A DNA stretch of 64,000 bases, taken from positions 5,956 to 69,955 of the forward strand of contig CAZZBH010000002.1 of assembly GCA_964652605.1 (NCBI GenBank). Direction: 5' to 3'. This DNA comes from an uncultured Planctomycetaceae bacterium (GTDB lineage: Bacteria; Planctomycetota; UBA8742; UBA2392). Under the pieces are notes generated by a model. That model was not told where the DNA came from and did no database searches. It worked only from the letters and a program-made list of their open reading frames with translations. Positions 25,865 to 44,826 of the stretch are shown in pieces (position 1 is the stretch's first letter; each line of letters starts with the position of its first letter). Both the position numbers and the translations under genes were made by a program.

Positions 25865-27082
25865 TCAGCAGCGGCCGTCACTTTGTGGTCGTACCCGATA
25901 GACGGCTGGTTCCATGAGTAGTTCCTTGCTTCCGAATGACGGATGCGGAATGGATAACAGCTTTGGTCGCTTGGTGAGAGCATCGAACACCAGATAAAGA
26001 TAGTAGTTGCCCGACTCCGCAGCCCGTCGGAACTCGTTTGCCGTCAGCAGGAACCCTCGTTCCATGTCGCCCGCGCTTGTGCTCTTTACTTCTATCTGGC
26101 GCTCGGATCCGTCAACGTCAAATGACTGGATGTCATACCCCGCTCTGTCGTCTTCCAACGCGATGTGCCGAATTTGGCTGGCGAGGTCGGATCGACCCGC
26201 CTTGAGCAGGCGATTACGCTCCCATTCCAGCACAATGTATTCTCCGCGGTCCCCGATTCGTTTCGACTGTCGAGCTAGCTCTTCATAGTTCGGCTTTCCG
26301 CGTCCTTCGCCCCCGCGAACCCCTGCCAGCGGGCCAGAGGGTAACACTGACAGTTCTTGAGTCCCGGAGACGGCCACGGTGAGATGTGGAAGCTCGTTAG
26401 AATGTGGCGCGCGCTCTGCGGCAACGCCGACAGGTCTTAGCGGACCTTGGTAAAGAAACTGCATGAACAGCACTGGTGGCACATCCACCGCTTCGGATAG
26501 GTCGTTGCGATAGCGCATCAGCGCGCGCTGCATCCGCGGACCGTCGCCGAGGTCGCCGGGTAGGTTCAGCTCACTGGTGAAGTGGCACAGATGTGCGTCC
26601 GAATAGATCGGTGCATAGCGCTCTGGATGGTAAATCGCGAGGAGCTTGCCCTTGAACATCGGAGAAAGATCGACCCGTTGGATGGCGACTTCGTCATCCC
26701 GATCTGCAGCCGCCAGCAAGTCGAGAATTGAAGGCTTGATCTCCTCGAACCCTGCAATGGGGTCGCCAATCCATCTCTTCTTGGCCCGATATGTCTTGCC
26801 TACCTCTCCCTTCTTCTTCCCGAAGTAGACTCCAAACTTCATCGCGGTGCTGCCACGCATGTCGCCCAACGTGAGCAACTCAAACTCGATTCGATAGCAG
26901 AATGTCTTCTTTCCCTTGCCGCTGACGTATTCGTCGATGGTGAGTTCTGCAATACGATCTGGTGGGAAGTCCGCCACGAATCGCGCCCGGAGTCGCTCCG
27001 TACGCTCGCAACCCTTCCACTCTTCCTTGGTCAGCCCGCCAAGCCAGCGTTGCAGGTCCTCCGTGAACTCGTTTCGATTCAT
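25865..27082 (-). CDS. Hypothetical protein with C-terminal DUF3883-like PD-(D/E)xK nuclease fold
   Basis: The C-terminus ..YDIQSFDVDGSERQIEVKSTSAGDMERGFLLTANEFRRAAESGNYYLYLVF.. has the D...EVK restriction-endonuclease-like motif and the YYLY tail typical of DUF3883. Confidence 0.45.
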   Translation of the reverse strand: MNRNEFTEDLQRWLGGLTKEEWKGCERTERLRARFVADFPPDRIAELTIDEYVSGKGKKTFCYRIEFELLTLGDMRGSTAMKFGVYFGKKKGEVGKTYRAKKRWIGDPIAGFEEIKPSILDLLAAADRDDEVAIQRVDLSPMFKGKLLAIYHPERYAPIYSDAHLCHFTSELNLPGDLGDGPRMQRALMRYRNDLSEAVDVPPVLFMQFLYQGPLRPVGVAAERAPHSNELPHLTVAVSGTQELSVLPSGPLAGVRGGEGRGKPNYEELARQSKRIGDRGEYIVLEWERNRLLKAGRSDLASQIRHIALEDDRAGYDIQSFDVDGSERQIEVKSTSAGDMERGFLLTANEFRRAAESGNYYLYLVFDALTKRPKLLSIPHPSFGSKELLMEPAVYRVRPQSDGRC

Positions 27083-28234: not shown

Positions 28235-31200
28235 TTGGATCTCGTGCCGAAGATATTCGACAACATTGAGGCAAAGCTGCTGCCGGCGTTGGTAGAGGGC
28301 GTCAAGGCCGCATATCGTGCTGACTTCTGCGTCGGCTTCTTCAACCTACGCGGATGGAAGAACCTCGCGGAGCATGTCCAGCGATTCGAGGGCGGCGACA
28401 AATGCTGTCGATTGCTTGTAGGCATGCAGCGTCTTCCGGAAGAAGACCTGCGCGACGCGTTGTCTCTCGCTGGTAGCGTAGATCAACTCGACAATGCCAC
28501 TGCCCATCGGCTCAAGATGCGTATGGCTCGCGGCTTTCGAGAGCAGTTGGCCATTGGTGCTCCAAGAGTCGAGGATGAGGCCGGTTTGCGTCAGCTTGCG
28601 GCACAACTTCGTTCCGGCGTGGTCGTAGCTAAACTGTTCCTCCGCTATTCGCTCCACGCGAAGCTCTACCTGTTGCATCGACACGACAACATTACGCCGC
28701 TGTTCGGCTATCTGGGGAGCAGCAATCTCACCCTTGCCGGGCTGGTTCATCAGGGCGAACTCAACGTGGATGTCGTCGATCAGGATGCGGCGAATAAGCT
28801 GGCCAAGTGGTTCGACGATCGGTGGTTCGACCACTACTGCGTTGACATATCGAAGGAACTAGCCGAAATCATCGAGCAAAGCTGGGTCAAGCCGGACCTA
28901 TCCCCATACCTCATCTACCTCAAGATTGCGTTTCATCTCTCCCAAGAAGCCCGCACCGGTCTCGCCGAATTCAAGATTCCAAAGGAGTTCAGCAACAAGC
29001 TATTCGAGTACCAGAAGGCAGCGGTCAAGATCGCTGCCCATCACCTCAATCGGCGCGGCGGGGTGCTCATTGGAGACGTGGTCGGGCTTGGTAAGACGCT
29101 GGTCGCAACAGCGATTGCCCGCATCTTTGAAGACGACTACTCCATGGAGTCGCTCATCCTCTGCCCCAAGAATCTGGTACGCATGTGGGAAGATCACCGC
29201 GAGCAGTATGGGCTCCGGGGCAAGGTCCTATCGATCAGCCGGGCAATGACGGAGCTACCAGATCTAAGGCGCTACAAGCTGGTGATCATCGACGAGAGCC
29301 ACAACCTCCGTAACCGCGAAGGCAAGCGCTATGGTGCCATTCGCGAGTACATTCACGCCAACGAAGCTCGTTGCGTTCTGTTGTCCGCAACGCCCTACAA
29401 CAAGTCGTTCATCGATCTGTCCTCGCAGCTACGCTTGTTCGTTGAGGAGGGCACAGACCTCGGTGTCCGGCCAGAGAAGCTCCTAAAGGACATTGGCGGC
29501 GAAACAGAATTCCTCAAGGCTCACCAATGCCCAGTCCACTCGTTGGAAGCCTTTGAGAAGAGCGGCTACACCGACGATTGGCGTGAGTTGATGCGGCTCT
29601 TCATGGTTCGGCGCACTCGCAGCTTCATTGAACAGCACTACGCGGAAACAGACGCCAACGGTCGGAAGTTCCTCACATTCGAGAACGGCGAAAAACAATA
29701 CTTCCCAAAGCGGGTGCCCAAGACCCGCAAGTTTGACTTGGACGATGCAGACCCGAATGATCAGTATGCCCGCTTGTTTACCGACTCGGTCGTGGATCGC
29801 ATCAACCACTTGCGGCTCCCAAGATACGGACTCGGCAACTACGTAGTGGCGAGGCCATCGACGCCGCCAACAACCGCTCAGGCGCGGGTACTCGCGGGCC
29901 TATCTCGGGCGGGCCAACGGCTGATGGGTTTCTGCCGAACAAACCTGTTCAAGCGGCTGGAAAGCAGTGGCGCAGCGTTTTTGCAGTCAGTGGATCGCCA
30001 CATCTTGCGCAACCTGATCGTCCTGCATGCGCTTGACCACAGCCTCGACATCCCAATTGGTACGCAGGACACGGAGATGCTGGACACCCGCTTCACGGAT
30101 GAGGATGCGGACGAGCAGGACCTTTTTGAGCGCGACGACGACACGGAGGTACCAGAAGCACCTGAGAACCCCGACCCGGCGGCACTGTCACTTGAATCGT
30201 TCCAGTCTTTGGCCGAGAGAGCCTATGCAAGGTACGCAGGGGAAAAGAGACGTCGCTTCAAATGGCTACCAAGTGCGCTCTTTCGCGCTGACCTACGTGA
30301 GCATCTTCTGGCGGATGCCAAATCGTTGCTCGTGCTTTTGAATGACGCTGGTGAGTGGGATCCGGGCCGCGACAACAAGCTGCAAGATCTCATTGACCTG
30401 CTTAGTCGCAAGCATCCGACCGAGAAGGTCTTGGTCTTCTCGCAGTTCGCGGACTCCGTGGACTACCTTGTGGAGCATCTTGGCGCCGCAGGCGTTAGCC
30501 GAATCGAAGGCGCCACCGGCCAGTCGTCTGACCCCACTGCATTAGCTTGGCGCTTCAGCCCCGTTAGCAATGAAAAGGTCGGCAGAATTAGCGCACAGGA
30601 CGAGCTGCGAGTGCTCGTGGCCACCGATGTCCTTAGTGAAGGCCAAAATCTGCAGGATGCTGCGATCGTCGTGAACTACGATCTGCCGTGGGCCATCATT
30701 CGCCTAATCCAGCGTGCGGGCCGCGTGGACCGTATTGGACAGCTAGCAGACAAGATCCTCTGCTACTCCTACCTGCCAGCCGATGGCATCGAGCGCATCA
30801 TTAGGCTCCGCGGGCGCGTACGCCAGCGTCTGCATGAGAACGCCGAGGTCGTCGGGTCCGACGAGGCTTTCTTCGAGGACGCGGATAGCCATACCCGGGT
30901 GCTCGACCTGTACAACGAGAAAGCCGGCATCCTCGACGAAGGTGAGGACGGGGATGTGGACCTCGCGTCCTACGCCTACCAGATTTGGCGCGACGCGACG
31001 AAAGACAACAGGGAGCTGGCCAAGCAGGTCGAGCAGTTGCAAGACGTCGTCAATGCGACCAAGCCCCACAAGTCGTCTCCCGATCGGCCCGAAGGCGTGC
31101 TTGTTTACGCTAAGACGAATCACGGGACTGACGCGCTCGCCTATGTCGACTTGGTCGGAAACGACGTCACCGAATCTCAACTTGAGATTTTGCAGCTTGC

Positions 31201-31624
31201 CGCATGTGAACCGGACACGCCGGCTATGCCGCGGCACTCCACGCACCATGCTCTTGTAGAGCAATCGGTGTCGGAGTTGGTGAAGAAAGAAACGCAGATC
31301 GGCGGTCAACTCGGAAGCTCCCGCGGCGCGCGATTTCGCGTGTATGAGCGCCTCAAGAACATTGCCGAGCATCAACGCGGAACGATGTTCCAGAACCCGG
31401 AGCTTGAAAAGACGATCGAAGAGATCTACCGCTTCCCGCTGCGCGAGCTGGCCAAGGATGCTTTGAACCGCCAGTTCAAGGCGGGCATCGACGACGACGA
31501 TCTGGTGAAGCTTGTGCTGGATCTGAGGTCAGAGGGACGGCTCTGCCAAGTTACCGAAGAGCAGCAGCGCCATGAAGCGCGCATCATCTGTTCCATGGGC
31601 CTTGCGAAGAAACAGGATGAATAG
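28235..31624 (+). CDS. Fusion of phospholipase-D-like (HKD) nuclease domain and SNF2-family helicase
   Basis: The N-terminal PLD motif is LHAKLYLL...GSSNLTLAGL. The SNF2/SF2 motifs are Walker A GDVVGLGKTLVAT, DExH VIIDESHNLRN, and helicase-C LVATDVLSEGQNLQDAAIVVNYDLPWAIIRLIQRAGRVDRIGQ. Confidence 0.8.
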   Translation: MDLVPKIFDNIEAKLLPALVEGVKAAYRADFCVGFFNLRGWKNLAEHVQRFEGGDKCCRLLVGMQRLPEEDLRDALSLAGSVDQLDNATAHRLKMRMARGFREQLAIGAPRVEDEAGLRQLAAQLRSGVVVAKLFLRYSLHAKLYLLHRHDNITPLFGYLGSSNLTLAGLVHQGELNVDVVDQDAANKLAKWFDDRWFDHYCVDISKELAEIIEQSWVKPDLSPYLIYLKIAFHLSQEARTGLAEFKIPKEFSNKLFEYQKAAVKIAAHHLNRRGGVLIGDVVGLGKTLVATAIARIFEDDYSMESLILCPKNLVRMWEDHREQYGLRGKVLSISRAMTELPDLRRYKLVIIDESHNLRNREGKRYGAIREYIHANEARCVLLSATPYNKSFIDLSSQLRLFVEEGTDLGVRPEKLLKDIGGETEFLKAHQCPVHSLEAFEKSGYTDDWRELMRLFMVRRTRSFIEQHYAETDANGRKFLTFENGEKQYFPKRVPKTRKFDLDDADPNDQYARLFTDSVVDRINHLRLPRYGLGNYVVARPSTPPTTAQARVLAGLSRAGQRLMGFCRTNLFKRLESSGAAFLQSVDRHILRNLIVLHALDHSLDIPIGTQDTEMLDTRFTDEDADEQDLFERDDDTEVPEAPENPDPAALSLESFQSLAERAYARYAGEKRRRFKWLPSALFRADLREHLLADAKSLLVLLNDAGEWDPGRDNKLQDLIDLLSRKHPTEKVLVFSQFADSVDYLVEHLGAAGVSRIEGATGQSSDPTALAWRFSPVSNEKVGRISAQDELRVLVATDVLSEGQNLQDAAIVVNYDLPWAIIRLIQRAGRVDRIGQLADKILCYSYLPADGIERIIRLRGRVRQRLHENAEVVGSDEAFFEDADSHTRVLDLYNEKAGILDEGEDGDVDLASYAYQIWRDATKDNRELAKQVEQLQDVVNATKPHKSSPDRPEGVLVYAKTNHGTDALAYVDLVGNDVTESQLEILQLAACEPDTPAMPRHSTHHALVEQSVSELVKKETQIGGQLGSSRGARFRVYERLKNIAEHQRGTMFQNPELEKTIEEIYRFPLRELAKDALNRQFKAGIDDDDLVKLVLDLRSEGRLCQVTEEQQRHEARIICSMGLAKKQDE

Positions 31625-31627
31625 CCG

Positions 31628-34600
31628 ATGCCGAACCTGAACAGCGTGCGCGCAGCGATTCGAGATTTCGATGTCAAGCGCGTACTAACGGGGGAGCTGG
31701 GCTGGGATCAGTGCCACCTGCCGGCACAGTCGGTGGAGATCGGCGAAGTATCATGGAAGCTCCACGCGGTCGCACAGAAGCGCGGCTTTGTCGTCTTCCA
31801 GTGCGAACCGAGTCCAGACGGCCTGATTCCCGAGTACGCCACGCGTAACAAGATCGAGCTCAAAGTTGCGAAGACCGCTTTCGAGCACATGATCGTCTAC
31901 GTGGACGCCGGCAAGACCGCTCAAGTCTGGCAGTGGGCGAAGAAGGAGTCCGGCAAGCCTATACAACGCCGCGAACTTGCCTACCACGCCGGCCACACCG
32001 GCGAGGCTCTAGCCCAGCGCCTTATCAGGCTTCGTTTCACGCTCGAAGAGGAAGGTGAGATCACCCAACCGGAAGTGGTGGCCCGCACCACCGAAGCGAT
32101 GCGTGCCGAGAAGGTTACCAAGCGCTTCTACGAGCGATTCACCAAAGAGCACTCCGCGTTCCTTGATTTCATCGAGGGCATCCGCGAACTCGGCGACCGC
32201 GAGTGGTACGCCTCGCTAATGCTCAACCGCATGATGTTCGTGTACTTCATCCAGAAGAAGGGGTTTCTTGATGGAGACCACGACTATCTGCGCAACCGTC
32301 TCAACAAGATGCGCGACCGAGCCGGCAGTGGCAAGTTCCACAACTTCTACCGCACGTTTCTGCTAACCCTATTCCATAGCGGCCTCGGGCAGCAGGAGGG
32401 CTACCGAACCCCTGAAGTAAAGCAGTTGCTCGGCAAGATTCCGTACCTAAACGGCGGCCTGTTTGACGTGCACCAGCTTGAGCGAGTCAACGCAAAGATT
32501 GACATTCCCGACGAGGCGTTCGAGCGCGTTTTTGACTTTTTCGACGAGTACGATTGGCACCTCGACACCCGCCCCGGTCGCGCTGACAACGAAATCAACC
32601 CCGACGTTTTGGGGTACATCTTCGAGAAGTACATCAACCAGAAGCAGATGGGAGCCTACTACACCAAGGAGGACATCACTGGCTACATCAGCCGCAACAC
32701 CATCATCTCGTCCCTATTCGACAAGGCCAACGCGAATTGCGCAACCGCTTTCAAGTCAGACGGCGGCGTATGGAAGCTGCTGAAGGAGAACCCGGATCGG
32801 TACATCTACCCCGCGGTGAAGCACGGCCTGACGTGGAACTATCGCACGAGCGAGGAACTCGACAAGCCGGTGCCGCTGCCAGCAGACATCGAAGCCGGCG
32901 TTGCGGAGGTGGGTAAGCGCGGCGAGTGGAACAAGACCGCCACTGATGGGGCGGGGTTGCCGACAGAAACATGGCGCGAGGTTATCGCCCGCCGCCAACG
33001 CTACGTGGAGATTTCGAACAAACTGAGGGCCGGTGATGTCAACAACATTGATGACCTGATCAAATTCAATCTTGACATCGAGCGCTTTGCGCTGGACGTG
33101 ATCGAACAATCGGAAGGCACTGACCTCGTCAAGGCCTTTTGGGAGGCACTTCAGGGGCGCGAAGGCAAAGACGGCAAGGTGGTCGAACTGGGCATCTCCG
33201 TGCTCGATCCCACCTGCGGATCCGGTGCATTTCTGTTTGCGGCCCTTGAGGTCTTGAAGCCCCTATACGACGCATGCCTGAACACGATGCGCGGATTCGT
33301 CGAGGACTTGGACCTTGATACCACCCGGGACAACACCAAGAAACTTAGCTGGGCGCGACAGGCGCTAGTGCAGATGGGAAGGCACCCCAGCGAGGACTAC
33401 TTCACATACAAGTCCATCGTCATCAGCAACCTGTTCGGCGTGGATATCATGGAGGAGGCAGTTGAGATCTGCAAACTGCGTCTCTTCCTCAAGTTGGTAG
33501 CTCAACTGGAAACACCAGAGCAGATTGAGCCGCTGCCGGACATCGATTTCAACATCCGTCCGGGCAACACACTGGTGGGCTTTGCCACGATGGACGAGGT
33601 GAAGCGCGTCATCGAAGGACAGAAGGGAAGAACCCCAAAGAAGCTGGACTTTGGCGGCGAGTACCGACAGATCGAAGAACGTGCGGAAGAAGTGGCGAGA
33701 GCGTACGGAATGTTCCGTCACATGCAGACAGAACAGCAGATGGACGGAGTCGCATTCGTTGAAGCCAAGGAAAAACTTCGAAAGCGACTTGACGCCCTAA
33801 AGGTGGACCTCGACGCGTTCCGTTCGTCTGACTACGGCATCCCCAAGGACAAACCAAAGTTGCTCCACGAGTGGCGAACAAGCCACCAGCCGTTGCACTG
33901 GCCGGCGGATTTCTATGCCATTGTTCGGCACGGTGGTTTCGATGTCATCATTGGCAATCCTCCGTACATAGAGCTAAAAGAAATTGCAAACTACGAGATT
34001 CGGGGATACGAGTGTATCCCCAGCGGGAATCTCTACGCCGTAATCATTGAGCGCTGCAGCAGGCTTTGCCACGCCGGATCCCGGCAAGGCTTCATTGTTC
34101 CAGTATCCTCCGTGTCGACTGACCGATACGAAACTTTGAGGCGCATGCTGGGCATGCAAGAGGATTGCTTCAGCTCCTATGACGACCGCCCTTCGAGGCT
34201 ATTTGATGGCTTAGAACACATTCGATTGACGATCCACCTCCTTGGCGGTCGTGGCGCCATACCTAACTCCACACGCTACAACAAGTGGTTCGCGCAGGAG
34301 CGCGCAATGTTGTTTGAGAGGCTGGAGTTCGTCGAAGCGGCTCCAACAATTGTCGATGGCAGTTGGCCAAAGCTAGGTTCGCGTGTGGAACATGCCATTC
34401 TTCAAAAGCTCTTGGGGCAAAAGGCAATCCTGCGTGAATTTTATGCGAGTCAGTCAGAGCATCGTATCTACTACTCAAGGAAGGTGGGCTACTTCTTGCA
34501 AGTCCTAGACTTCGAGCCAACAGTACTGGACGGTAGAGGCTCCCGGCGCGCGCCCTCAGAGTTCAAGACGATTGCCTTCAAAACCGCAGCTCAAGCAAGA

Positions 34601-34987
34601 CTGGCGCTATGCTGCCTGAATTCCAGTTTGTTCTATTGGTTCGTAACCGTGCTGTCCGACTGCCGCCATCTGAACAAGCGCGAGATCGATGCTTTCCCGA
34701 TCAATCTAGCCGAGCTTGAGGCAAGCACTGTAGAGAAGCATCTCGTGGGTCTTGGGCAAAGCCTAATGCGTGATCTTCAGCTCCACTCCGAGGACCGAAC
34801 CATGCGGTTTCGGCACGACACTCTTACGATTCAGTGCATCTACCCCAAGCATAGCAAGCCGTTTATTGACCGCATCGATGCTTTGCTAGCGAAGCACTAT
34901 AGGTTCGCGCCAGAGGAGCTGGACTTTATTGTCAATTACGACGCGAAATACCGCATGGGGCCGCATGACGGTGAAGTGGACCGCTAG
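31628..34987 (+). CDS. MmeI/Eco57I-family (type IIG / PglX-like) N6-adenine DNA methyltransferase with an N-terminal PD-ExK nuclease-like head domain
   Basis: Hallmarks are QKQMGAYYTKEDITGYI, the AdoMet/catalytic motif DVIIGNPPYIE (NPPY), a large size (1119 aa) and a C-terminal TRD-like region. The N-terminal ~110 aa carry PDG...IELK (PD-x13-ExK). It starts 4 nt after the helicase stop. Confidence 0.75.
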   Translation: MPNLNSVRAAIRDFDVKRVLTGELGWDQCHLPAQSVEIGEVSWKLHAVAQKRGFVVFQCEPSPDGLIPEYATRNKIELKVAKTAFEHMIVYVDAGKTAQVWQWAKKESGKPIQRRELAYHAGHTGEALAQRLIRLRFTLEEEGEITQPEVVARTTEAMRAEKVTKRFYERFTKEHSAFLDFIEGIRELGDREWYASLMLNRMMFVYFIQKKGFLDGDHDYLRNRLNKMRDRAGSGKFHNFYRTFLLTLFHSGLGQQEGYRTPEVKQLLGKIPYLNGGLFDVHQLERVNAKIDIPDEAFERVFDFFDEYDWHLDTRPGRADNEINPDVLGYIFEKYINQKQMGAYYTKEDITGYISRNTIISSLFDKANANCATAFKSDGGVWKLLKENPDRYIYPAVKHGLTWNYRTSEELDKPVPLPADIEAGVAEVGKRGEWNKTATDGAGLPTETWREVIARRQRYVEISNKLRAGDVNNIDDLIKFNLDIERFALDVIEQSEGTDLVKAFWEALQGREGKDGKVVELGISVLDPTCGSGAFLFAALEVLKPLYDACLNTMRGFVEDLDLDTTRDNTKKLSWARQALVQMGRHPSEDYFTYKSIVISNLFGVDIMEEAVEICKLRLFLKLVAQLETPEQIEPLPDIDFNIRPGNTLVGFATMDEVKRVIEGQKGRTPKKLDFGGEYRQIEERAEEVARAYGMFRHMQTEQQMDGVAFVEAKEKLRKRLDALKVDLDAFRSSDYGIPKDKPKLLHEWRTSHQPLHWPADFYAIVRHGGFDVIIGNPPYIELKEIANYEIRGYECIPSGNLYAVIIERCSRLCHAGSRQGFIVPVSSVSTDRYETLRRMLGMQEDCFSSYDDRPSRLFDGLEHIRLTIHLLGGRGAIPNSTRYNKWFAQERAMLFERLEFVEAAPTIVDGSWPKLGSRVEHAILQKLLGQKAILREFYASQSEHRIYYSRKVGYFLQVLDFEPTVLDGRGSRRAPSEFKTIAFKTAAQARLALCCLNSSLFYWFVTVLSDCRHLNKREIDAFPINLAELEASTVEKHLVGLGQSLMRDLQLHSEDRTMRFRHDTLTIQCIYPKHSKPFIDRIDALLAKHYRFAPEELDFIVNYDAKYRMGPHDGEVDR

Positions 34988-35203
34988 CGGGCATGCCTAC
35001 TCAAGAGGTAGCTACGTGCGCAGAAGCGACTGCCTACGATGCGGTGTTAGGCATGGACGTGCTGCAACGCTGGCGCTTGGAGTACGAGGGTCCGGACAGG
35101 CACCTTTACCTGAAACTGCTGCAGTGACAGCTGTGCGTGGGGGCTCAACGGGACGTCAAACTACGTGCGAGCCCAACGACAAAGGGTGCGAGAGGCATGA
35201 TCG

Positions 35204-36676
35204 ATGGACAGCGTCGAAACCGCACTCCTAGGTCACGCTTTTGACGAGTTGTTCGTCGAGCACCTCGGGTGGGATCGTGTGAAAGCTGCGGTCTCCCTCG
35301 AATGTCGTGGCACATCCTTCGTTCTGAGCGCCGTGGCGCACAAGCGAGGCTTTACCGTCTTTAGCTGCTTGACACACCGCACGGTCGTTGCAGATCGCCA
35401 CTTTCTACGCGACATTCAGCGGCAACTTCGTAAGACTTACCACGAGCACATCATTGTCTTCCACTGCGATGCGCCGCCCAAGCAGGTGTGGGCGTGGGCC
35501 TTTGCCGCTGACGACAAGCGCGCGGTGGAACACCGCGAACACCCATTCTTTTCGGATCAACCGCCTCCGTTGCTGCTCCAGCGACTCCACGGCTTGGCGT
35601 TCCGGCTTGAAGAAGAGGCGAGCATCACTCTCGTTGACGCGATAAGCCGCGTCCGGCAAGCCCTTGTACCGGAATCCGAGTTCAACCTATTCGCCAAATG
35701 GCCGGGATATGCGCGGAAAACGGAACGACTGGCACTCGCCTATCGCGATGGAGACGCGTCGGCACTGCCGAGAATCGTAGAGATGCACCTGATGTTGGCC
35801 AAGAAGTGGTCGTGGCTGGCAAGGGCATGGTTTGGGCTCGACAAAGATGATGCTGGCCAAATCGCCGTGCTCGGATTGATCGAAGCCGCCCGTCGGTTCG
35901 ATCCCACGCTGGGGTACCAGTTCTCAACCTATGCAGTGGTGTGGATTCGTCAGGCTTGCTCCCGCGAAGGCCTTGAGGCAAGCCAGTTCATCCAGATACC
36001 TAGCTACCTGCACTGGCCAAGTGCCAGAATTGAACGGGCGCAACGCCAGATTGAACGTCGGCATGGCCCCACCGCTGCCGCATGTGCAGTTGATCGGCTG
36101 CTCGCCAAGGAGGGCATTCAGTTCGATTACTGGCATCACGGCCAACTCGCGCGCGAGCTTCGCCTTGCCGTGAATTTGCCCAAACGTCAGTGGAAGGTCT
36201 TTCATTTGGAGGACACGGTCACCCCCGTGGACGCCCTCGAACTCAAGGAGTTACAAGCGGCTATTCACGAAGAACTCGGAAGGCTCCCAGCTCGTGATGC
36301 GGATGTACTCCGCAAGCGGTTCGGCCTCGATGGACCCGTGATGAGGCTACGGGAAATCGCGAAGCCGCTGGGTTTGACCCGCGAACGCATCCGGCAGATT
36401 CAACGGAACGCAATGGAGTTGCTGCGAGGGCGCCTTGCCGCGCGTGGCATCGTTCCTGAGGGCATTGACGTGGGTTACGACTCCTTCGACGAAGATGAGG
36501 AGTCCTTCCCGCCGGCATCCGAAATGCAGTTCTCAGGAGCACCTGATCATGCGTCTCCATCGCTAGACGCGGGCGGTGTCGCAGACGATTCTACACTTGA
36601 CGAGACGGGCACATTTGACTTGAGCAGTCTGCAACGAGAGATGGCCTTTGACGACACCGAAGCTGTCACTGAGTGA
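35204..36676 (+). CDS. Sigma-70-family sigma factor fused to an N-terminal domain homologous to the methyltransferase's nuclease-like head (catalytic residues substituted)
   Basis: Sigma region 2 is DAGQIAVLGLIEAARRFDPTLGYQFSTYAVVWIRQAC. Region 4.2 HTH is LPARDADVLRKRFGLDGPVMRLREIAKPLGLTRERIRQIQRNAMELLR. Residues ~20-105 align to the N-terminus of the 31628 product (LGWD, AVAxKRGFxVFxC, EHxIVxxDA..QVWxWA). Confidence 0.6.
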   Translation: MDSVETALLGHAFDELFVEHLGWDRVKAAVSLECRGTSFVLSAVAHKRGFTVFSCLTHRTVVADRHFLRDIQRQLRKTYHEHIIVFHCDAPPKQVWAWAFAADDKRAVEHREHPFFSDQPPPLLLQRLHGLAFRLEEEASITLVDAISRVRQALVPESEFNLFAKWPGYARKTERLALAYRDGDASALPRIVEMHLMLAKKWSWLARAWFGLDKDDAGQIAVLGLIEAARRFDPTLGYQFSTYAVVWIRQACSREGLEASQFIQIPSYLHWPSARIERAQRQIERRHGPTAAACAVDRLLAKEGIQFDYWHHGQLARELRLAVNLPKRQWKVFHLEDTVTPVDALELKELQAAIHEELGRLPARDADVLRKRFGLDGPVMRLREIAKPLGLTRERIRQIQRNAMELLRGRLAARGIVPEGIDVGYDSFDEDEESFPPASEMQFSGAPDHASPSLDAGGVADDSTLDETGTFDLSSLQREMAFDDTEAVTE

Positions 36677-37244
36677 AGTACGGCGGTCAATGCCGGACTA
36701 TCCGGCTCATCTTCCGGACCGACTTGGTCGCCGGGCTCCCAAAGTGCTGTGGGTGATGGGCGATGCTGGCCTGCTAGGTCAGGACCTGTTGGCGATCCTT
36801 TGCTCGGTGCGCTGCCCCGGAAACGAGATTCTCAAGCTGTTCGACGTTGCCCGCGGGCTGCGCGATGCCGGCGTAGGAGTCATAAGCGGCTTCCATACAC
36901 CCATGGAAAAGGAGTGCCTCGTAACGCTCCTGCGCGGCAAGCAGCCGATCGTAATGTGCCCTGCCCGAAGCGTGCACGGCATGAGGGTACGGCCGGAATG
37001 GCGGGCTGCACTTGACGGCGGCCGGCTAGCCATCGTTTCACCCTTTCCGGCAAGCGTGAGTCGGGCTACGAAAGCGTCGGCAGCAGCGCGCAACCGGCTT
37101 GTGGCGGCAATAGCAAGTGACGTGATGATTGCTCACGCCCAACCCGGGGGTCAAACTGCGAGACTTGCGGAGGAACTCACGAAGTCTGGTCGTCCGCCTT
37201 GGGGTTTGGACTCCGCAAACCTTCACCGGCTAGTCAAACCGTAG
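36648..37244 (+). CDS. DprA/Smf-like Rossmann (SLOG superfamily) protein
   Basis: ..VISGFHTPMEKECL...RLAIVSPFPA...ARNRLVAAIASDVMIAHAQPGGQTARLAEE.. parallels the DprA motif RNRIIAGLS..VVVEA..SGSLITAR. It overlaps the sigma gene's 3' end by 29 nt. Confidence 0.5.
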   Translation: MTTPKLSLSEVRRSMPDYPAHLPDRLGRRAPKVLWVMGDAGLLGQDLLAILCSVRCPGNEILKLFDVARGLRDAGVGVISGFHTPMEKECLVTLLRGKQPIVMCPARSVHGMRVRPEWRAALDGGRLAIVSPFPASVSRATKASAAARNRLVAAIASDVMIAHAQPGGQTARLAEELTKSGRPPWGLDSANLHRLVKP

Positions 37245-37335
37245 CGTGGCATCGCCACCCCTCACTCCTGAAACTACGACGACAGTCGCAATGGCGCCTT
37301 GTGCTTTGTAGGGTCTGGCCACCTAGGGGGACGAC

Positions 37336-39123
37336 ATGAAGTTGGGTGAACTCACACACCGCGACCTTGATGCTGAGGTCCAGCAGATTGCGGAGAAGCA
37401 CCAGCATAGGCTGAAGAGAGACGATGCCTTCGTCGTCTGGTTTCTGCGGGCATACGTTACCGACGATGAAGATCGCTCATTACGTGCACTGACAGGTGGA
37501 TCTGGCGACAAGAGCGTCGACGCCACGCTGATCGACCGTCGAGCCAAGGTCGTGTTTGTCGTGCAGGGAAAGTACCGTCACGAAGTAAACAGGGGCAACG
37601 AACGGCGGTCAGACGTACTTGCCTTTGCCCAATTGGCCCACTGGATCCAGCAGGCGTCCCGGCCGGAATTCGACCAGTTCGCGGAGGGTATGGACGCCCT
37701 GACCGCGGACGCACTACGCGAAGCGCGACAGGCGGTTCAGAAGGACAAACATCGCCTGATCCTCTACTACGCTACGCTGTCAAAAGTGTCGCCATCGGTG
37801 GCACGAGATGCTGTGGCTGAAGTAAGGCGAAGCACGCCCCGAGACTTCCCCAAGGCAGAGATTGAAGTCTTTGATGGCAACCGCGTGATGCACCTATTCC
37901 GCGACTGCATGGATGGCGTGGCGCCACCGATTCGGGAACTGGAACTGGAGATGGAGCACGGCCCCAAGGTACAGGTCGGCGCGCTCATGCATCGGCACGA
38001 CTCCGCAAAGCAGATCAACAGTTGGGCCTTCCCCATGCGCGGAGACAAGGTGGCCGAATTGTACGATGTTGCACGCGACCGGCTGTTTGCCCGGAACATC
38101 CGCGGCTATCTTGGTGAGAGGACACAAATCAACAAGGACATGTTGGATACGTTGAAGTCCCAGCCGGAGAACTTTTTCTACTTCAACAACGGCGTCACGA
38201 TTGTCTGCGACGGCGCCGAAGAACTTGGCTCGGGCTTATCGAGACGGCTTCGTGTGGCCAACCCGCAAGTGATCAACGGACAGCAAACTACGCGAACCCT
38301 GTGGCAGCACGCCAAGTTTGCAGTCGATGCAAGCGTCTTGGTCAAGGTAATGGCTGTGCCACGCGATCCAGAAGGAGACGGGGACTCGTTTGACGACCTC
38401 GTTTCCAACATCGTTGCCGGCACAAACTGGCAGAACGCAATCAAGCAGGCAGACCTGCGCGCCAATGACCGCAAGCAAGTGGCCCTTGAACGCGAGCTAC
38501 GGAAGCTCGGCTACCTCTACGTTCGAAAGCGCCAGTCCAAAGGCGAAGCCAAACGTGCCGTACGTGCAAAGCACTTGCGAGCAGTAACCAAGGAGGAGCT
38601 GGCCCAAGCCGTGGCTGGGTGCGAATTGGATCCTGTCGTTAGTCGATCCGGCAAAGACAACCTCTTTGCGGAGGACCTCTACGACAGTGTGTTCCCAAAC
38701 ACAGACCCGCACTTCTACCTGAACAGATACCACGTGATGCGACAGGTTGCCTATGTGGCGCGTGGTAATCCGCAACGATCGTACTTCAAATGGTTGATCC
38801 TCGGATTCGTGTGGGGCGAGTTTCGCCACTATTTGGGCAAAGCGTCCTCACGAGAAGCGTTTCGGCAGGCGTGGCAGCGCGGCGACAGCACAGTGCTGAC
38901 TCCACTGAACAGAGCCATTGACACGGCGTTTCGCGATGCATGGCGCTTCTTCCGCGTCTACCGCGGCAAGGGCGACGAGCAGCTAGACGCCTCGCAGTTC
39001 TTCCGCAACCACAAGGGACGCGACAAGCAGTTCGGCAAGTTCTGGCAGCGCCGGGGCAATAGAGAGCGGCAGCGCCTTGAATCCGCTCTACGGAACGCCG
39101 CCAACGCAGTCGACAAGATTTAG
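37336..39123 (+). CDS. AIPR-like (abortive infection phage resistance) protein with N-terminal nuclease-like motif
   Basis: The N-terminus TGGSGDKSVDATLIDRRAKVVFVVQGKY resembles the G.GD.GIDA...Q.KY signature of AIPR-family proteins. At 595 aa it is consistent with that family. Confidence 0.4.
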   Translation: MKLGELTHRDLDAEVQQIAEKHQHRLKRDDAFVVWFLRAYVTDDEDRSLRALTGGSGDKSVDATLIDRRAKVVFVVQGKYRHEVNRGNERRSDVLAFAQLAHWIQQASRPEFDQFAEGMDALTADALREARQAVQKDKHRLILYYATLSKVSPSVARDAVAEVRRSTPRDFPKAEIEVFDGNRVMHLFRDCMDGVAPPIRELELEMEHGPKVQVGALMHRHDSAKQINSWAFPMRGDKVAELYDVARDRLFARNIRGYLGERTQINKDMLDTLKSQPENFFYFNNGVTIVCDGAEELGSGLSRRLRVANPQVINGQQTTRTLWQHAKFAVDASVLVKVMAVPRDPEGDGDSFDDLVSNIVAGTNWQNAIKQADLRANDRKQVALERELRKLGYLYVRKRQSKGEAKRAVRAKHLRAVTKEELAQAVAGCELDPVVSRSGKDNLFAEDLYDSVFPNTDPHFYLNRYHVMRQVAYVARGNPQRSYFKWLILGFVWGEFRHYLGKASSREAFRQAWQRGDSTVLTPLNRAIDTAFRDAWRFFRVYRGKGDEQLDASQFFRNHKGRDKQFGKFWQRRGNRERQRLESALRNAANAVDKI

Positions 39124-39262: not shown

Positions 39263-40468
39263 TTACGCGAGGGTTGCCCAGCGCTGTTCGAGGATCACGC
39301 CGCGACGTTGTTCCAAAATCTTCAACGCTGCACGATTTGCATTGATAGATTCGGTAAAGTCCCGGTCGTCTGCTCGAACCGCAACGCTACGGAGTTCCTT
39401 GAGCAGTTGCTCTGCTTGGTTCAAACCTGCCTCATGGTGAGCGACGGTTGCGGCGAACGATTCCTTGCGTGTGTGCATCACCTGATCTCGCAAGCATGCA
39501 AGGTAGTGGCGAAACGAGTCCGGCTCGCCATAAGCGACTGTGCTAGGTTGCGCTTCGCCGAACAGCAAGGAACTGTACTGCTGGAGGTGAGTTGGCACTG
39601 CCATCTTGTGCAGAACACCAAGTTGCTTGGCTACATCTAGGGCTCGCACTTTGTACTCGGATAGGGCTTGCGGGCAGTAGTACCAAAGTGCGCGCTGCAG
39701 TTTCTGCTCCTCTTCCGGCTCGTAAAACTTCTCAGGTGAGAAGACACGAACGTTCTTCCAAGTGCCCGAAGCGACGGCATTGGCTCCTGCGGCTGCTGCG
39801 ATCAACATCTGTTGATTACAGTAGCCTACAACGACCTCGACACCTTTGAGCCGAAGGCCAGCAATGAAATCCAGTGCATTCCCAAGCCAGATCGGATCTT
39901 CAACGAAGTAGCCGCCGTTGGGATGCTGGAGCACGATGTAGACACCTTGCACATTCCAAGTGGGCACTCGTTCGAGTACTTCGTGTATCTGGTTGACATC
40001 AGCCACAGCCGGGCCGCCAAGCGCGATGGTCGCCATCCTTCGGCGCGCTGGCATCTGGGTTGCACACGCCGCTGCAATCTGCTCCTGTCGTTCTAGCCAC
40101 TCGTCGTTGACAGTCTCTGATAGCAGGCCGGGCAAGATTACGGCGGCAGTGCCGATCTCTAGGTTGACGGCGGCGATGCTGGCGACCGACCGGGTCAGAT
40201 CATTTCCGCCAAAAAACGTTCCGCTGTCATAGCTGGCCGGAAACGAATCGTGGCTCTTGAGTCGCTCATGGTTCGCGTGCGGAACATACCACTGCGGATC
40301 AAAGAGCAAACGGACGCCCTCCACCTGCGCGATTTTGCCTGCTTGGGACGCTAACCACTCGGGCTTGATGTCTCTGGGACTAAGAATGACGGTGCCACCA
40401 CCCCATTCGCTGCATAGCGAGATCGAGTGGTCCATCATCCCATGTCCGAACTGGAGGGCAAATTCCAT
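39263..40468 (-). CDS. Hypothetical protein (last gene of the kinase operon)
   Basis: A 401-aa ORF whose start is 10 nt from the kinase stop. No family recognised. Confidence 0.35.
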   Translation of the reverse strand: MEFALQFGHGMMDHSISLCSEWGGGTVILSPRDIKPEWLASQAGKIAQVEGVRLLFDPQWYVPHANHERLKSHDSFPASYDSGTFFGGNDLTRSVASIAAVNLEIGTAAVILPGLLSETVNDEWLERQEQIAAACATQMPARRRMATIALGGPAVADVNQIHEVLERVPTWNVQGVYIVLQHPNGGYFVEDPIWLGNALDFIAGLRLKGVEVVVGYCNQQMLIAAAAGANAVASGTWKNVRVFSPEKFYEPEEEQKLQRALWYYCPQALSEYKVRALDVAKQLGVLHKMAVPTHLQQYSSLLFGEAQPSTVAYGEPDSFRHYLACLRDQVMHTRKESFAATVAHHEAGLNQAEQLLKELRSVAVRADDRDFTESINANRAALKILEQRRGVILEQRWATLA

Positions 40469-40478
40469 TTTCTGTTCC

Positions 40479-41366
40479 TTAGAGCGTTCTTGCCCAATCC
40501 AGTGCTGACTGGGCGGACTCAGGTCGATGGTCTCGTCGAGGTTGGGCTAGCGTCCGGACAAATGCGTCAAACCTGCCGCCAACATCGTCCTTCAGCTGCA
40601 GACGCGGCAAGGGGCTGTTCTCCACGCGTTGGCAGACCTCGAAGGCATCCTTCGCCCCGACTCGGAAGTGGTTGGCCCCGGTAACTGCCTCGTAGAGGGT
40701 CGCACCAAGGGCAAACAAGTCGGCACGCGCGTCTAACTCCCGCTTCTTGTTCTGAAACTGTTCAGGAGGAGCGTAGCCCAGTGTCCCAACTCCGCCGACC
40801 TGACCGGAAGCTGTCAACGACTCAAGGTCAAGATGCCGTGCGATTCCGAAGTCAAGAAGCCAGAAGTTGCCCGTAGGATCGCAAACAATGTTGTCCGGCT
40901 TCACATCCCTATGGATTACACGCGCACTCTCAGCCGCGGCGAGTGCCTCTAGGACATGGGTGGCCAAGCGCTTGGCATCTGCTACGGATAGTGGCGAAGC
41001 ATTGATCACCGCGCGAAGCTGGTCGCCGGGGACGAATTCCTCAAGAAGCCAAACCAGAGAACCTACGACTGAGTCACGTATGTCGGCGTGATAGATGTGG
41101 GGAACGCGTGGGCATTTCACTGCCACAACCGCCTGAATTTCTCGTTGGATTCGTTCTAGATCGGCGTGAGGCTTGATGAGCTTCAGGACGGCTGGCCTGC
41201 CGTCATTGGTCTCGCATGCGAATACCCATTTTTGCCCGCCTTCTCCCAGCGGCCGCAGCGCGGCGAGTTCGGGAAACAACGCTTGAACCATCGGAATGGA
41301 CAGCTGCATTTGTGGGTCCGTCGGCACGCAGTGCTGGGAGCCTACGCGGCCAACCGCGAGGCCCAC
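40479..41366 (-). CDS. Hanks-type serine/threonine protein kinase
   Basis: Present are the Gly-loop LGEGGQKWVFAC, the VAIK-like AVLKLIK, the catalytic loop HRDVKPDNIV, DFGIA and GTLGYAPPE. Confidence 0.8.
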   Translation of the reverse strand: MGLAVGRVGSQHCVPTDPQMQLSIPMVQALFPELAALRPLGEGGQKWVFACETNDGRPAVLKLIKPHADLERIQREIQAVVAVKCPRVPHIYHADIRDSVVGSLVWLLEEFVPGDQLRAVINASPLSVADAKRLATHVLEALAAAESARVIHRDVKPDNIVCDPTGNFWLLDFGIARHLDLESLTASGQVGGVGTLGYAPPEQFQNKKRELDARADLFALGATLYEAVTGANHFRVGAKDAFEVCQRVENSPLPRLQLKDDVGGRFDAFVRTLAQPRRDHRPESAQSALDWARTL

Positions 41367-42064
41367 TCACTCAGAAGCCATGACCCGTATGATATCGGTT
41401 TGCCGCAAGATGCAAATGAGGACTTTAGAATCGGACGACGTTCATTGGCGACCCAGATCCCGACGTTCCATCGACGAGCCGACTCAATAAACGTTTCATT
41501 TCGGGGCCGATTGGGAAGCAGAACATACGACTCGTGAGCAAACCAGCGGTGCGCCGATGCCTGTTCCAGCACCCGTTTCGAAGCGCTCATTTTAGCTTCA
41601 AATGCCACGATCCGCGACACTGGGAACAAACCTGCAAGTGCAGCGAGTCGCCACCGCGAGTTGCTGAGTCGCGTATAGCCGGCAAGCTGAAGTTTCAAAA
41701 GGCTCGCTTCAGCCGTTGCCCCACAGTAGGCACGAACCGTCGACAGGCAGGACGGTCCTAAACTGAATAGTAGCTGCGCTACTCGAAAGTCCGCCTTACC
41801 AAGGCACACGCCGGCGTCGGTCGGTGTTGCCCGCTCAGCCTTGCGAGACACAATCACGGCGTCCGGGTACGTGCCGTCGAGCAACGGCTCCACAAATGCA
41901 ATTCGTTGGGCCGGTGAGTGCATAGACCGATCGAGTTGGTTGAGAAAAGAAATGAGCATCGACGCTTCGGCGCCCGAACGCTCTGAGCGCAACACGAGAT
42001 CCGGCACGACCTCGCCACGGCCGCCGCCATTCTGCACCACAATGAAGCCTCTTGACTTTTTCAT
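41342..42064 (-). CDS. Hypothetical protein with possible PD-(D/E)xK-like motif (first gene of the kinase operon)
   Basis: ..YPDAVIV... and ..RIVAFEAKMS.. resemble D...ExK. It overlaps the kinase start by 25 nt. Confidence 0.3.
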   Translation of the reverse strand: MKKSRGFIVVQNGGGRGEVVPDLVLRSERSGAEASMLISFLNQLDRSMHSPAQRIAFVEPLLDGTYPDAVIVSRKAERATPTDAGVCLGKADFRVAQLLFSLGPSCLSTVRAYCGATAEASLLKLQLAGYTRLSNSRWRLAALAGLFPVSRIVAFEAKMSASKRVLEQASAHRWFAHESYVLLPNRPRNETFIESARRWNVGIWVANERRPILKSSFASCGKPISYGSWLLSEWASRLAA

Positions 42065-42621: not shown

Positions 42622-44688
42622 GTGACCAAGTTGGATGGCGGGAGGCAGGTGCCTCCCGCCATCCCCGACCAAGGAACGAACATGATCCCTGAGATCGAAC
42701 GCGACGCCATGCACCCCGATCGCGCGTTAGCTCCCTACAGCGGCGCGCTTCTTGGCGCACTGGTCAAGGCCTTTGATCTTGATGATGAGGCAGTGGTGGG
42801 AGCGGAGAGCGTGGTCGGGGGTCGTTACTCGGTGCCCTACGTGCTGCGCAAGGAAACAACACAGGACTACTTCCGCGGGCGACGCCCGATCAAGCAGAAT
42901 TCCGAAGAGGAGATCGTCGAGGCCGTCTGCTGGGGGCTGGTACGGGCCGGAATTGTCCCACCGGTTCAGTTACCTCCAAATGCTGCGACAGGGCTGCCGG
43001 GTGGCGGCATCTATGAGCTAGTCTACCTTGGCATCAGACACCTGCTCTGGGCGTGGGATGGTGTACGCGGCAGTGTGTCCAGTCTGTCGGCCTCGGTGAC
43101 GAACCCGAAAACCGCCGCGCTTCCATTCATGCGGTTGTTTGCAATAGATCTTGCCCTGCGTCTTCAAGCATTGCTTCTGCTGACGGCTGTCGACTTCAGC
43201 GCATCGGATTCAGTTGCATGGGCCACACCTGACGGACGAGGTTGGCTTCTGCAACGTTGGTTTGAGCGCGCCGGAACGAATGCGCCAACGAAAACGGGGC
43301 TTGCAGCTCGGCTGACCGGCTTCGTCGAACACCGAGATGGGGCGTCACATCAGGCAGTTGGCTACTGGTTGGACGGTTCGCGCACCCCGAGCGCCCAGCA
43401 TATGATCGAACTCGCCCGTGAGTTCAGTTCGCTCGATACGGGGGAGTCGGAAGAGGCGCTGCTTGCCCAGATGCGCCGATTCTACGGGCTCTGGCGACTG
43501 GGGGAGATGCTATCGAAGGTTGTGGGCTGGGATGTAGTTCAGGACGCAGCGGCCCGAATCTCCCGGTACATCGATTCCGGCCAAGCATTGGTACGACTAT
43601 CTGGGGACGTGCGCTCAAGTTCGGTTCAGCAGCTCCTCGTGTGCGACGTGGCAATGGGTCTCTGGAAGCAAGGAGGTGAACATGGCGCCGCGTCGCTGAC
43701 CGGGTACATGGAGAAGGGATTGATCTGGCGTGGGCCTTGGACCAAATCGGAGACCGACCCCGTTTGGAAAACGGACCTGCTGGTATGCGGATCTACGGCA
43801 AAGCTCGTGAGCGGCCACTCTGGCGATGCACTCGCGTATGGTGTTGAGCGCCAACTCTTGCCTTTTACAACACGAATCCAACACTGCTATCAGCGCGGCG
43901 CTGCATGGGAGGCAGTCACGAGGGCAGTGCCTGAGCTTGCGGATGCCAAGTTGCCTCCGCCCTTCGATCACGAATCCACCTACCGACTGATGAACTCTTA
44001 CCACCGCCTTTGGCCACCCGAGCTGCGGGCTCCTTGGGAAGCGCTCTCGCGCTCTCATCCCACGCTGCTCGCCAACCAGTACGAGCAGATGGCGGCGGAC
44101 GAGCAGGTATGGGGATTCTACGAGGACGCAATCGAGTATTGGAAGCTCGCAATCCAGAACGCGCCCGATGACGCCTACAAGCTGTTTCGACTGGGAGCCC
44201 TGTACGGCGAGGTAGGCGAGGTCGAGGCAGCCAAGGGTTGCCTACGACGTGCAAGTGACCTCGACCCGCTTTGGCTTCAACCCACGCTCGAAATCGGCCG
44301 GATTCTCATGCACGTCGGGCAGTATCAGGACGCGCTGGCACACCTCCAAAAGGTGCCACCAGAGGCCATGAACACCCACGTCTTTGGGCAGTACCTTCTT
44401 GGTCACGCCTTCGCTGCACAAGGTCAGCTAAAGGAGGCCGCTGCCGCGTTCGAACGCCTCACGGAGCTTCAGTCGGACAACGCCGGCGCGTTTGCGGAGG
44501 CTTCCCTGAGCCTCTTTCAGGCTTTGAAAGCCAACCCGAACACGGCGGATCGCAAAGTAACCATCAGTCGCGGGAAGGAGTGGGCGAAGAAGGCAGCGTT
44601 GATGGGCGACGACAGAGCGAAGGCGGCGTGGACTGAGAGTGCTGGCGGCACCAAGTCTCCGAAAAAGCGCCGAAAGCCCAAAAAATAG
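42622..44688 (+). CDS. TPR-repeat protein with unknown N-terminal domain and a basic C-terminal tail
   Basis: The C-terminal third has clear TPR-like repeats (AYKLFRLGALYGEVGEVEAAKGCLRRASDLDP..; QYLLGHAFAAQGQLKEAAAAFERLTEL). The tail is KSPKKRRKPKK. Confidence 0.45.
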   Translation: MTKLDGGRQVPPAIPDQGTNMIPEIERDAMHPDRALAPYSGALLGALVKAFDLDDEAVVGAESVVGGRYSVPYVLRKETTQDYFRGRRPIKQNSEEEIVEAVCWGLVRAGIVPPVQLPPNAATGLPGGGIYELVYLGIRHLLWAWDGVRGSVSSLSASVTNPKTAALPFMRLFAIDLALRLQALLLLTAVDFSASDSVAWATPDGRGWLLQRWFERAGTNAPTKTGLAARLTGFVEHRDGASHQAVGYWLDGSRTPSAQHMIELAREFSSLDTGESEEALLAQMRRFYGLWRLGEMLSKVVGWDVVQDAAARISRYIDSGQALVRLSGDVRSSSVQQLLVCDVAMGLWKQGGEHGAASLTGYMEKGLIWRGPWTKSETDPVWKTDLLVCGSTAKLVSGHSGDALAYGVERQLLPFTTRIQHCYQRGAAWEAVTRAVPELADAKLPPPFDHESTYRLMNSYHRLWPPELRAPWEALSRSHPTLLANQYEQMAADEQVWGFYEDAIEYWKLAIQNAPDDAYKLFRLGALYGEVGEVEAAKGCLRRASDLDPLWLQPTLEIGRILMHVGQYQDALAHLQKVPPEAMNTHVFGQYLLGHAFAAQGQLKEAAAAFERLTELQSDNAGAFAEASLSLFQALKANPNTADRKVTISRGKEWAKKAALMGDDRAKAAWTESAGGTKSPKKRRKPKK

Positions 44689-44826
44689 CCGGTTTTGGGG
44701 CATAAGAACATGGATGGATCCCGTAGCCGCAATACGGCCCCGGGGTTCGAGCAATTCCGCGGCGTCGGCTATGGGAGTCGGCGCCTTTCATGTTCTCGGC
44801 CCTGCTTGGGCCTGATCGGAGGATGC

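Follow-up and report, generated by a model that had tools for sequence, protein, structure and literature searches.

Introduction

Sigma factors encoded inside defence operons are already known. MzaA is the sigma component of the validated anti-phage system mzaABCDE (NF041931; PMC9523054; bioRxiv 10.1101/2022.06.16.496414), and in Myxococcus xanthus, the extracytoplasmic function (ECF) sigma/anti-sigma pair DdvS/DdvA regulates a CBASS-CRISPR defence island (PMC11506125). HKD-SNF2 helicases paired with methyltransferases (MTases) have been reported in the Type-2 “BREX-related” (BR) systems (PMC12839542), and a SNF2-nuclease fusion occurs in Hma (PMC11232893). Here, we describe a sigma-70 factor from an uncultured Planctomycetaceae bacterium (GenBank assembly GCA_964652605.1), whose N-terminal domain (hereafter, the head) is paralogous to that of the N6-adenine (N6A) MTase encoded next to it. 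Both genes are located in a 64,000-nucleotide (nt) stretch of contig CAZZBH010000002.1 (hereafter, the window), in a cassette that also includes an HKD-SNF2 helicase gene. Our literature searches found no published description of a sigma factor that carries an MTase head.

A Sigma-70 Factor with the Head of the Adjacent Methyltransferase

The open reading frame (ORF) of the sigma protein comprises the following features.

35204–36676, + strand: sigma ORF, 490 amino acids (aa), with its ATG immediately 3′ of an in-frame stop
35204–35677, + strand: head of the sigma protein (residues 1–158), paralogue of the MTase head, with conserved K47, HEH (80–82), QVWAW (94–98) and HREH (110–113)
35702–36448, + strand: sigma-70 regions 1.2 to 4.2 (residues about 167–415)
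35921–35953, + strand: region 2.3/2.4, FSTYAVVWIRQ
36377–36403, + strand: region 4.2, TRERIRQIQ
36449–36676, + strand: acidic C-terminal tail and stop codon; non-conserved, predicted to be disordered

Three sigma-70 models are matched above their cut-offs: Pfam Sigma70_r2 (35.8 bits; cut-off 24), Pfam Sigma70_r4 (43.2 bits; cut-off 24.1) and TIGR02937 (69.9 bits; cut-off 42.9). A preceding reading made from the letters alone (the sequence-only reading) had named the product a sigma-70 factor, and these scores bear it out. The conserved segments, which by comparison with E. coli RpoD we take to be region 2.2 (core binding), regions 2.3/2.4 (FSTYAxxWIRQ) and region 4.2 (TRERIRQI), include two motifs, FSTYAxxWIRQ and TRERIRQI, kept throughout the family of head-sigma proteins described below. 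Judged by its sequence, the ORF appears to encode a complete group-1/2-like sigma-70 factor, spanning regions 1.2 to 4.2, with core-binding, −10 and −35 recognition segments that resemble those of primary sigma factors. Region 1.1 is not present, and the head occupies its place. The full-length protein was modelled with AlphaFold2 (AF2) as a single chain with a predicted local distance difference test (pLDDT) score of 87.4; residues 434–490 of the tail score below 50, and the occupancy of the tail in the family alignment is 0.41.

In a BLASTP comparison of sigma residues 1–150 with MTase residues 1–170, the two heads are 33% identical over 152 aa, with three gaps and E = 9e-22; the homologous span extends over residues 1–158 of the sigma protein and residues 1–160 of the MTase. 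Moreover, sigma residues 8–199 match positions 12–198 of the PADLOC profile PDLC03628 (E = 7.6e-20). An alignment of 24 heads drawn from both families is almost free of gaps over 160 columns and has invariant L, G, W, K, E, H, Q, W and W; the residues that are nearly or fully invariant in both families are (MTase numbering) G25, W26, K51, E86, H87, Q99, W101, Q102, W103, R115 and E142. The sigma head retains every residue invariant across both families; the site that these residues form, whatever its nature, persists in the sigma copy. The AF2 model of the MTase head has a pLDDT of 90.9, and both modelled heads present the same order of secondary structure elements (α-α-β-β-β-α-β-β-β-α-α). The paralogy of the two N-terminal domains, as the sequence-only reading had it, is thus upheld, and both peptide strings that it quoted are found as written.

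The probability that this similarity is due to chance, or to an annotation artefact such as low complexity, a frameshift fusion or misassembly, is practically negligible. Low-complexity coincidence does not account for an almost gapless alignment with E = 9e-22; about 100 independent full-length homologues share the architecture in many assemblies, and the sigma protein yields a confident model as one chain. Nothing in favour of an artefact was found, and we consider it refuted.

Heads of the sigma protein and the MTase from the same locus are 32.4% identical, and those from different loci 32.3%, while sigma heads are 51% identical among themselves. The equal identity of same-locus and different-locus pairs implies a single ancient duplication and fusion rather than a recent copy of the adjacent gene; recent tandem duplication and gene conversion are ruled out by the same figures. 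Viral contigs in IMG/VR match the sigma part only, never the head, on which ground a phage origin of the head-sigma protein was rejected.

Neither MzaA nor DdvS is the same as the sigma factor described here. MzaA is likewise a longer protein inside a defence operon that ends in a C-terminal sigma-70-type domain; it gave the best NCBIfam match of the sigma part (2.3e-30), and in the window, an AIPR (MzaE-like, AbiU-like) gene adjoins. However, the NF041931 model scores 106.1 bits against a cut-off of 800, over profile positions 499–703 only, that is, in the sigma part only; in the lack of a full-length match at cut-off, membership of the Mza system was rejected. DdvS/DdvA parallels our case in that a sigma factor is dedicated to a defence locus, but DdvS is an ECF (group 4) factor with a separate transmembrane anti-sigma factor, whereas the sigma factor in the window is group-1/2-like, with a presumed regulatory module fused in cis and held in common with an MTase.

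Sigma factors with fused regulatory extensions do exist, for example, the ECF41/42-type factors (C-terminal extensions) and pro-sigma-K. They resemble the head-sigma protein in the presumed in-cis modulation of sigma activity by a fused domain; yet, they are ECF or sporulation sigma factors with extensions unrelated to restriction-modification (R-M), whereas the extension found here stands at the N-terminus, in place of region 1.1, and has its paralogue in a domain of a partner enzyme.

The Helicase–Methyltransferase Cassette

The other genes of the cassette and their diagnostic motifs, as well as the AIPR gene adjacent to it, are the following.

28235–31624, + strand: HKD (phospholipase D, PLD)-SNF2 helicase-nuclease, 1129 aa (Pfam and PADLOC)
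28655–28732, + strand: HKD motif of the helicase, HAKLYLL...GSSNLT
29084–29098, + strand: helicase motif GLGKT
29291–29305, + strand: helicase motif DESHN
31628–34987, + strand: Eco57I-type protein of 1119 aa, consisting of head, helical part, gamma-class N6-adenine MTase and target recognition domain (TRD)
31628–32107, + strand: head of the MTase (residues 1–160)
33206–33232, + strand: S-adenosylmethionine (SAM) motif of the MTase, DPTCGSGAF
33956–33967, + strand: NPPY motif of the MTase
36648–37244, + strand: DprA-like (DNA_processg_A/SLOG-type) protein, 198 aa (Pfam PF02481, 43 bits; cut-off 29.6)
37336–39123, + strand: AIPR/AbiU-like abortive-infection protein, 595 aa (Pfam AIPR, 134 bits; PADLOC AbiU, 6.5e-41)

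The helicase matches four Pfam families above cut-off (PLDc_2, 33 bits; RE_NgoFVII, 27.7 bits; SNF2-rel_dom, 45.6 bits; Helicase_C, 63.8 bits), as well as the PADLOC model “HKD+Snf2” C3a139 (4.3e-40). To judge from these domains, it probably serves the cassette as both nuclease and motor. The MTase has all the features of an Eco57I-type gamma-class enzyme (model threshold, SAM motif and NPPY); it scores 79.2 bits with Pfam Eco57I (cut-off 25.3) and matches the PADLOC profile REase_MTase_IIG (PDLC03628) end to end with 1110.8 bits. The DprA-like ORF as called, the true start of which is uncertain, shares its first 29 nt with the 3′ end of the sigma gene.

The order of parts in the MTase (N-terminal domain, helical part, gamma-class N6A MTase, TRD) is that of type IIG/IIL enzymes such as MmeI, DrdV, BpuSI and Eco57I. 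It differs from them in having no conserved PD-(D/E)xK motif, no match to the MmeI N-terminal or nuclease families and a separate HKD-SNF2 motor-nuclease as a partner. An MmeI-type assignment was rejected, as MmeI_Mtase scored 24.9 bits against a cut-off of 27 and no other MmeI-named family was matched at E ≤ 0.1.

The cassette shares with Type-2 BR, Hma and class 1 DISARM (DrmD/DrmMI) an SNF2 motor-nuclease fusion encoded beside an N6A MTase in a defence island, and in Type-2 BR helicases, the HKD domain is at the N-terminus, as in the window. Pfam scans of the cassette ORFs (28235–39123) returned only sigma-70, DNA_processg_A and AIPR families besides those of the helicase and the MTase. HKD-SNF2 is present, but no ORF matches DUF499 or DUF3780, and Type-2 BR was rejected. 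In the same scans, an HmaC-type ATPase was not recognised, and neither were DrmA, DrmB and DrmC, for which Drm-specific models were run on four proteins only. Class 1 DISARM was rejected, given a score of 125 bits with DrmD NF038317 (cut-off 610). No head-sigma fusion appears in the descriptions of BREX-related, Hma or DISARM systems that we consulted.

The AIPR protein weakly resembles MzaE (63.7 bits; cut-off 1050). A tblastn comparison with the window proteins found no AIPR gene in the other head-sigma loci, and the gene is probably an independent neighbour, outside the conserved cassette. On its 3′ side follow ORFs without family match (39263–40468 and, on the − strand, 41342–42064), a Ser/Thr protein kinase gene (40479–41366, − strand), a tetratricopeptide repeat protein gene (42622–44688) and a gene with a weak DUF932 match (44695–45855); a DUF932 gene also flanks the MTase gene in one other locus (L086). 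On the 5′ side of the cassette lie a phage-type integrase gene (22677–24026), an AbiEi/AbiEii toxin-antitoxin pair (24252–24872 and 24865–25782) and a gene for a NOV_C-domain protein (25865–27082, − strand). The G+C content of the region (0.56–0.60) is slightly below that of the flanks (about 0.62). As a whole, the region looks like an integrated defence island.

Distribution and Conserved Context

A protein search yielded about 100 clusters of full-length head-sigma homologues, 27–53% identical and mostly 415–620 aa long, all of which carry the head together with Sigma70_r2/r4; almost all belong to Planctomycetota. Among the 29 GTDB loci with a head-sigma member (L005–L033), 28 are titled Planctomycetota, including Pirellulales, Gemmatales, Isosphaeraceae, Phycisphaerales and others. 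The tblastn comparison located an HKD-SNF2 helicase gene (54–77% identity) and a head-MTase gene in every head-sigma locus with sufficient flank, and in most of them, a DprA-like gene adjoins the sigma gene. At least three gene orders occur: helicase-MTase-sigma-DprA, helicase-sigma-MTase and divergent arrangements. The association is kept across these varying orders and, therefore, suggests a functional linkage rather than an operon accident.

We further compared 80 metagenome loci of the MTase family (L089–L168), 73 of which are informative for the helicase. The helicase gene is present in 66 of these 73, ending just upstream of the MTase gene in 59 and located elsewhere in seven. A DprA-like gene occurs in 30 of the 80 loci and the sigma gene in just two, both of them among those 30. 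Hence, the helicase and head-MTase core is more widespread than the head-sigma family, and the DprA-like protein is a frequent third component of the helicase-MTase system in its own right. The head-sigma protein is the fourth component of the Planctomycetota version of a widespread restriction-like cassette.

Some loci have additional genes. In L085, which lacks the sigma gene, a PIN gene is located between the helicase and MTase genes (order helicase, PIN, MTase), and in the closest related locus (L001), an MTaX1 + HNH_2 gene (8887–9903) lies between the MTase and sigma genes; accessory nucleases, thus, seem to have been inserted into the cassette. A small HTH_17/excisionase-like gene is often found just 5′ of the helicase gene, as in L007, L009, L011 and L025 (about 200 nt upstream) and in L085 (3783–4013), and it could encode the controller protein of the cassette. 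In the window, no such gene was recognised 5′ of the helicase gene.

The Head Is Not Supported as a PD-ExK Nuclease

The sequence-only reading had seen in the MTase head a PD…ExK nuclease motif of the MmeI kind and, in the sigma head, its catalytically degenerate copy. The literal strings are there: SPDG (62–65) and IELK (76–79) in the MTase and IQRQ (71–74) in the sigma protein. In 121 MTase orthologues, however, P63 is found in 16, D64 in 67, E77 in 106 and K79 in 10. Furthermore, the (D/E)xK of the PD-(D/E)xK fold normally sits on a β-strand, whereas in the AF2 model of the MTase head, the IELK segment is within a helix (70–80); strands 41–51 and 54–59 of this head, where the D and (D/E)xK would be expected, carry no conserved acidic residue or lysine besides K51. 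We, therefore, rejected the PD-ExK motif for its poor conservation in the orthologues and the helical placement of IELK. What stands of the proposed ExK-to-IQRQ change is its first half: the E77-to-Q72 substitution is real and family-wide (87% of MTase heads have E, and 84% of sigma heads have Q), while the lysine is not a conserved residue of the MTases to begin with.

The head matched no Pfam family, those of MmeI included, and no sequence in the PDB; a Foldseek search against the PDB gave no convincing match (best E = 0.016, with a TM score below 0.3). In structure, it bears a weak resemblance to the N-terminal parts of DrdV and BpuSI, and it could plausibly be a remote derivative of the type IIG/IIL nuclease domain. 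An account in which the head has a PD-ExK fold like that of MmeI-type type IIG enzymes, with an activity that the MTase retains and the sigma protein has lost through the E-to-Q change, so that the sigma copy would serve as a DNA-binding or decoy domain, is quite unlikely, and a PD-ExK nuclease is not supported in either protein. By its sequence, the HKD/PLD domain of the helicase is the evident nuclease of the cassette, and with such a domain already in the system, the head is disfavoured as another nuclease.

The sigma head does not look like a decaying copy either. Forty-two of its positions are conserved at 90% or more, and mean conservation in the sigma family is 0.61 for the head, 0.71 for sigma-2, 0.40 for sigma-3 and 0.51 for sigma-4. 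This pattern indicates strong purifying selection on the head, comparable in conservation to sigma region 2, and a domain that is specialised rather than decayed; “catalytically degenerate” is, thus, not an apt description of a head that also keeps the shared invariant residues. Family-wide differences from MTase to sigma heads are, in addition to E77 to Q72, R73 to L68 and F14 to H11, and conservation of R106 and E107 is confined to MTase heads. Conversely, H11, R59, H80, K93, H110, H113, P114, F115, S117 and P120 form a conserved set peculiar to sigma heads. A His/acidic cluster specific to the sigma head comprises H11 (35234–35236), HEH 80–82 (35441–35449) and HREH 110–113 (35531–35542), of which E81 and H82 alone are also conserved in MTase heads; from its composition, the cluster could be a metal or ligand site that was gained. 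A database search for similar fusions, which the sequence-only reading had called for, was successful as far as the sigma fusions beside head-MTases are concerned; it is their PD-ExK nature that finds no support.

A Possible Transcriptional Arm of a Restriction-like System

We propose that the MTase and the sigma protein share the head as a module for coupling or sensing and that the head-sigma fusion constitutes a transcriptional arm of the restriction-like system, a reading that we hold to be evenly poised between right and wrong. By analogy with the coupling of Mod and Res in Type III and ISP enzymes, the head would most probably be the contact surface of the MTase for the HKD-SNF2 motor-nuclease, or else it would respond to a common DNA or ligand signal. 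As both proteins carry the same head module, the sigma protein would be wired to the partner of the MTase. Whether the restriction complex is free, sits on unmodified DNA or has been inhibited by a phage could then be signalled to RNA polymerase, via sequestration and release of the sigma factor or via its recruitment, and a transcriptional arm would have been added to the system. More specifically, the head may dock onto the HKD-SNF2 motor, which could be coupled either to the MTase-TRD part, for site-specific modification and restriction, or to RNA polymerase by way of the head-sigma protein; we put this forward tentatively and regard it as rather doubtful.

Three points weigh against the transcriptional arm. 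The contact between head and helicase is one that we infer. Three charged residues of the MTase head (E77, R106 and E107) are gone from the sigma heads, which fits a partial loss of function. Finally, the regions upstream of the sigma gene, the DprA-like gene and the helicase gene yielded no conserved promoter motif, and, hence, no regulon can be named: a promoter consensus scan of the cassette stayed at chance level, inspection by eye of the regions upstream of the sigma and helicase genes from 16–22 loci revealed no motif, and k-mer enrichment in 22 upstream regions gave nothing exceeding shuffled sequences.

The absence of a common promoter motif upstream of the cassette genes also speaks against an alternative in which the sigma fusion acts as the controller (C) protein of an R-M system, or as a dedicated alternative sigma factor, governing when and how strongly the cassette or the DprA-like gene is expressed, while its head would be a self-contained sensor of a ligand or of the DNA state that does not dock onto the helicase. 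The precedents of DdvS/DdvA (PMC11506125) and MzaA in mzaABCDE (PMC9523054) for sigma factors governing defence loci favour it, as does the overlap or abutment of the sigma and DprA-like ORFs in many loci, and the residues H11, H80, H82, H110, H113, R59 and K93 of the sigma head might point to a new site for a ligand or a metal. Nevertheless, the HTH_17 gene 5′ of the helicase gene in several loci could already be the controller, and this alternative leaves unexplained why the sensor should be the MTase’s own head; we think it unlikely.

Sigma regions 2 and 4 are typical targets of phage anti-sigma factors, and the primary-sigma-like determinants kept in these regions are compatible with the sigma moiety being a bait for phage proteins that hijack or inhibit the host sigma factor or RNA polymerase, with binding relayed through the head to the helicase-nuclease to trigger methylation-independent restriction. 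The occurrence of the sigma fusion as an accessory in a minority of cassettes (the two in 80 mentioned above) is also as expected of an add-on sensor. Yet, strongly conserved residues for −10 melting and −35 recognition better match a working sigma factor than a bait, and both the bait function and the link of its head to an effector complex are entirely conjectural, and we consider this guard or decoy role very improbable.

The Head as a Domain Family

A profile built from the 24 heads retrieved 1436 cluster representatives at E ≤ 1e-3, 967 at 1e-10 and 311 at 1e-30. Of the best 150 among the 1436, only P0340, P0278 and the second copy in P0241 depart from an N-terminal position of the head, and 141 of these 150 comprise 68 MTases, 32 sigma fusions and 41 proteins with the head alone, mostly short fragments. 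Most of the MTase-head matches in the database are, indeed, fragments of 200–370 aa (P0122–P0240), and the MTase gene in locus L004 (3834–7147) is split into three ORFs; the head-only fragments probably result from frameshifts in long-read metagenome assemblies and are not genuine stand-alone heads.

A few matches have other architectures. P0241 (300 aa) consists of two heads in tandem. In P0372 (L087, 757–2808), the head is joined to pentapeptide repeats that span about 450 aa, and the gene is located directly 3′ of an HKD-SNF2 helicase gene; with no second case among 119 pentapeptide-repeat homologues, it is a singleton, and we rejected it as a third family. Other proteins combine related pentapeptide-repeat modules with N-terminal nucleases (PLD, HNH, Mrr) or with TIR, caspase or kinase domains. 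P0340 (1050 aa; L088, 831–3983) contains several degenerate head-like repeats with cyclic nucleotide (cNMP)-binding and 4Fe-4S domains, in a context of cytochrome genes, and the head fold may, thus, have remoter relatives outside defence systems.

The heads of the widespread HKD-SNF2-associated MTases, thus, define a hitherto uncharacterised domain family. The presumptive device that couples the sigma factor to the effector machinery is here legible in the sequence: the replacement of region 1.1 by the head domain of the MTase, throughout a phylum, provides a testable hypothesis for how a restriction-like complex might communicate with RNA polymerase. If docking of the head onto the motor proves true, a restriction-like defence would be physically wired to transcription, either as a partner-switching sigma factor triggered by infection or as recruitment of a nuclease directed by RNA polymerase.

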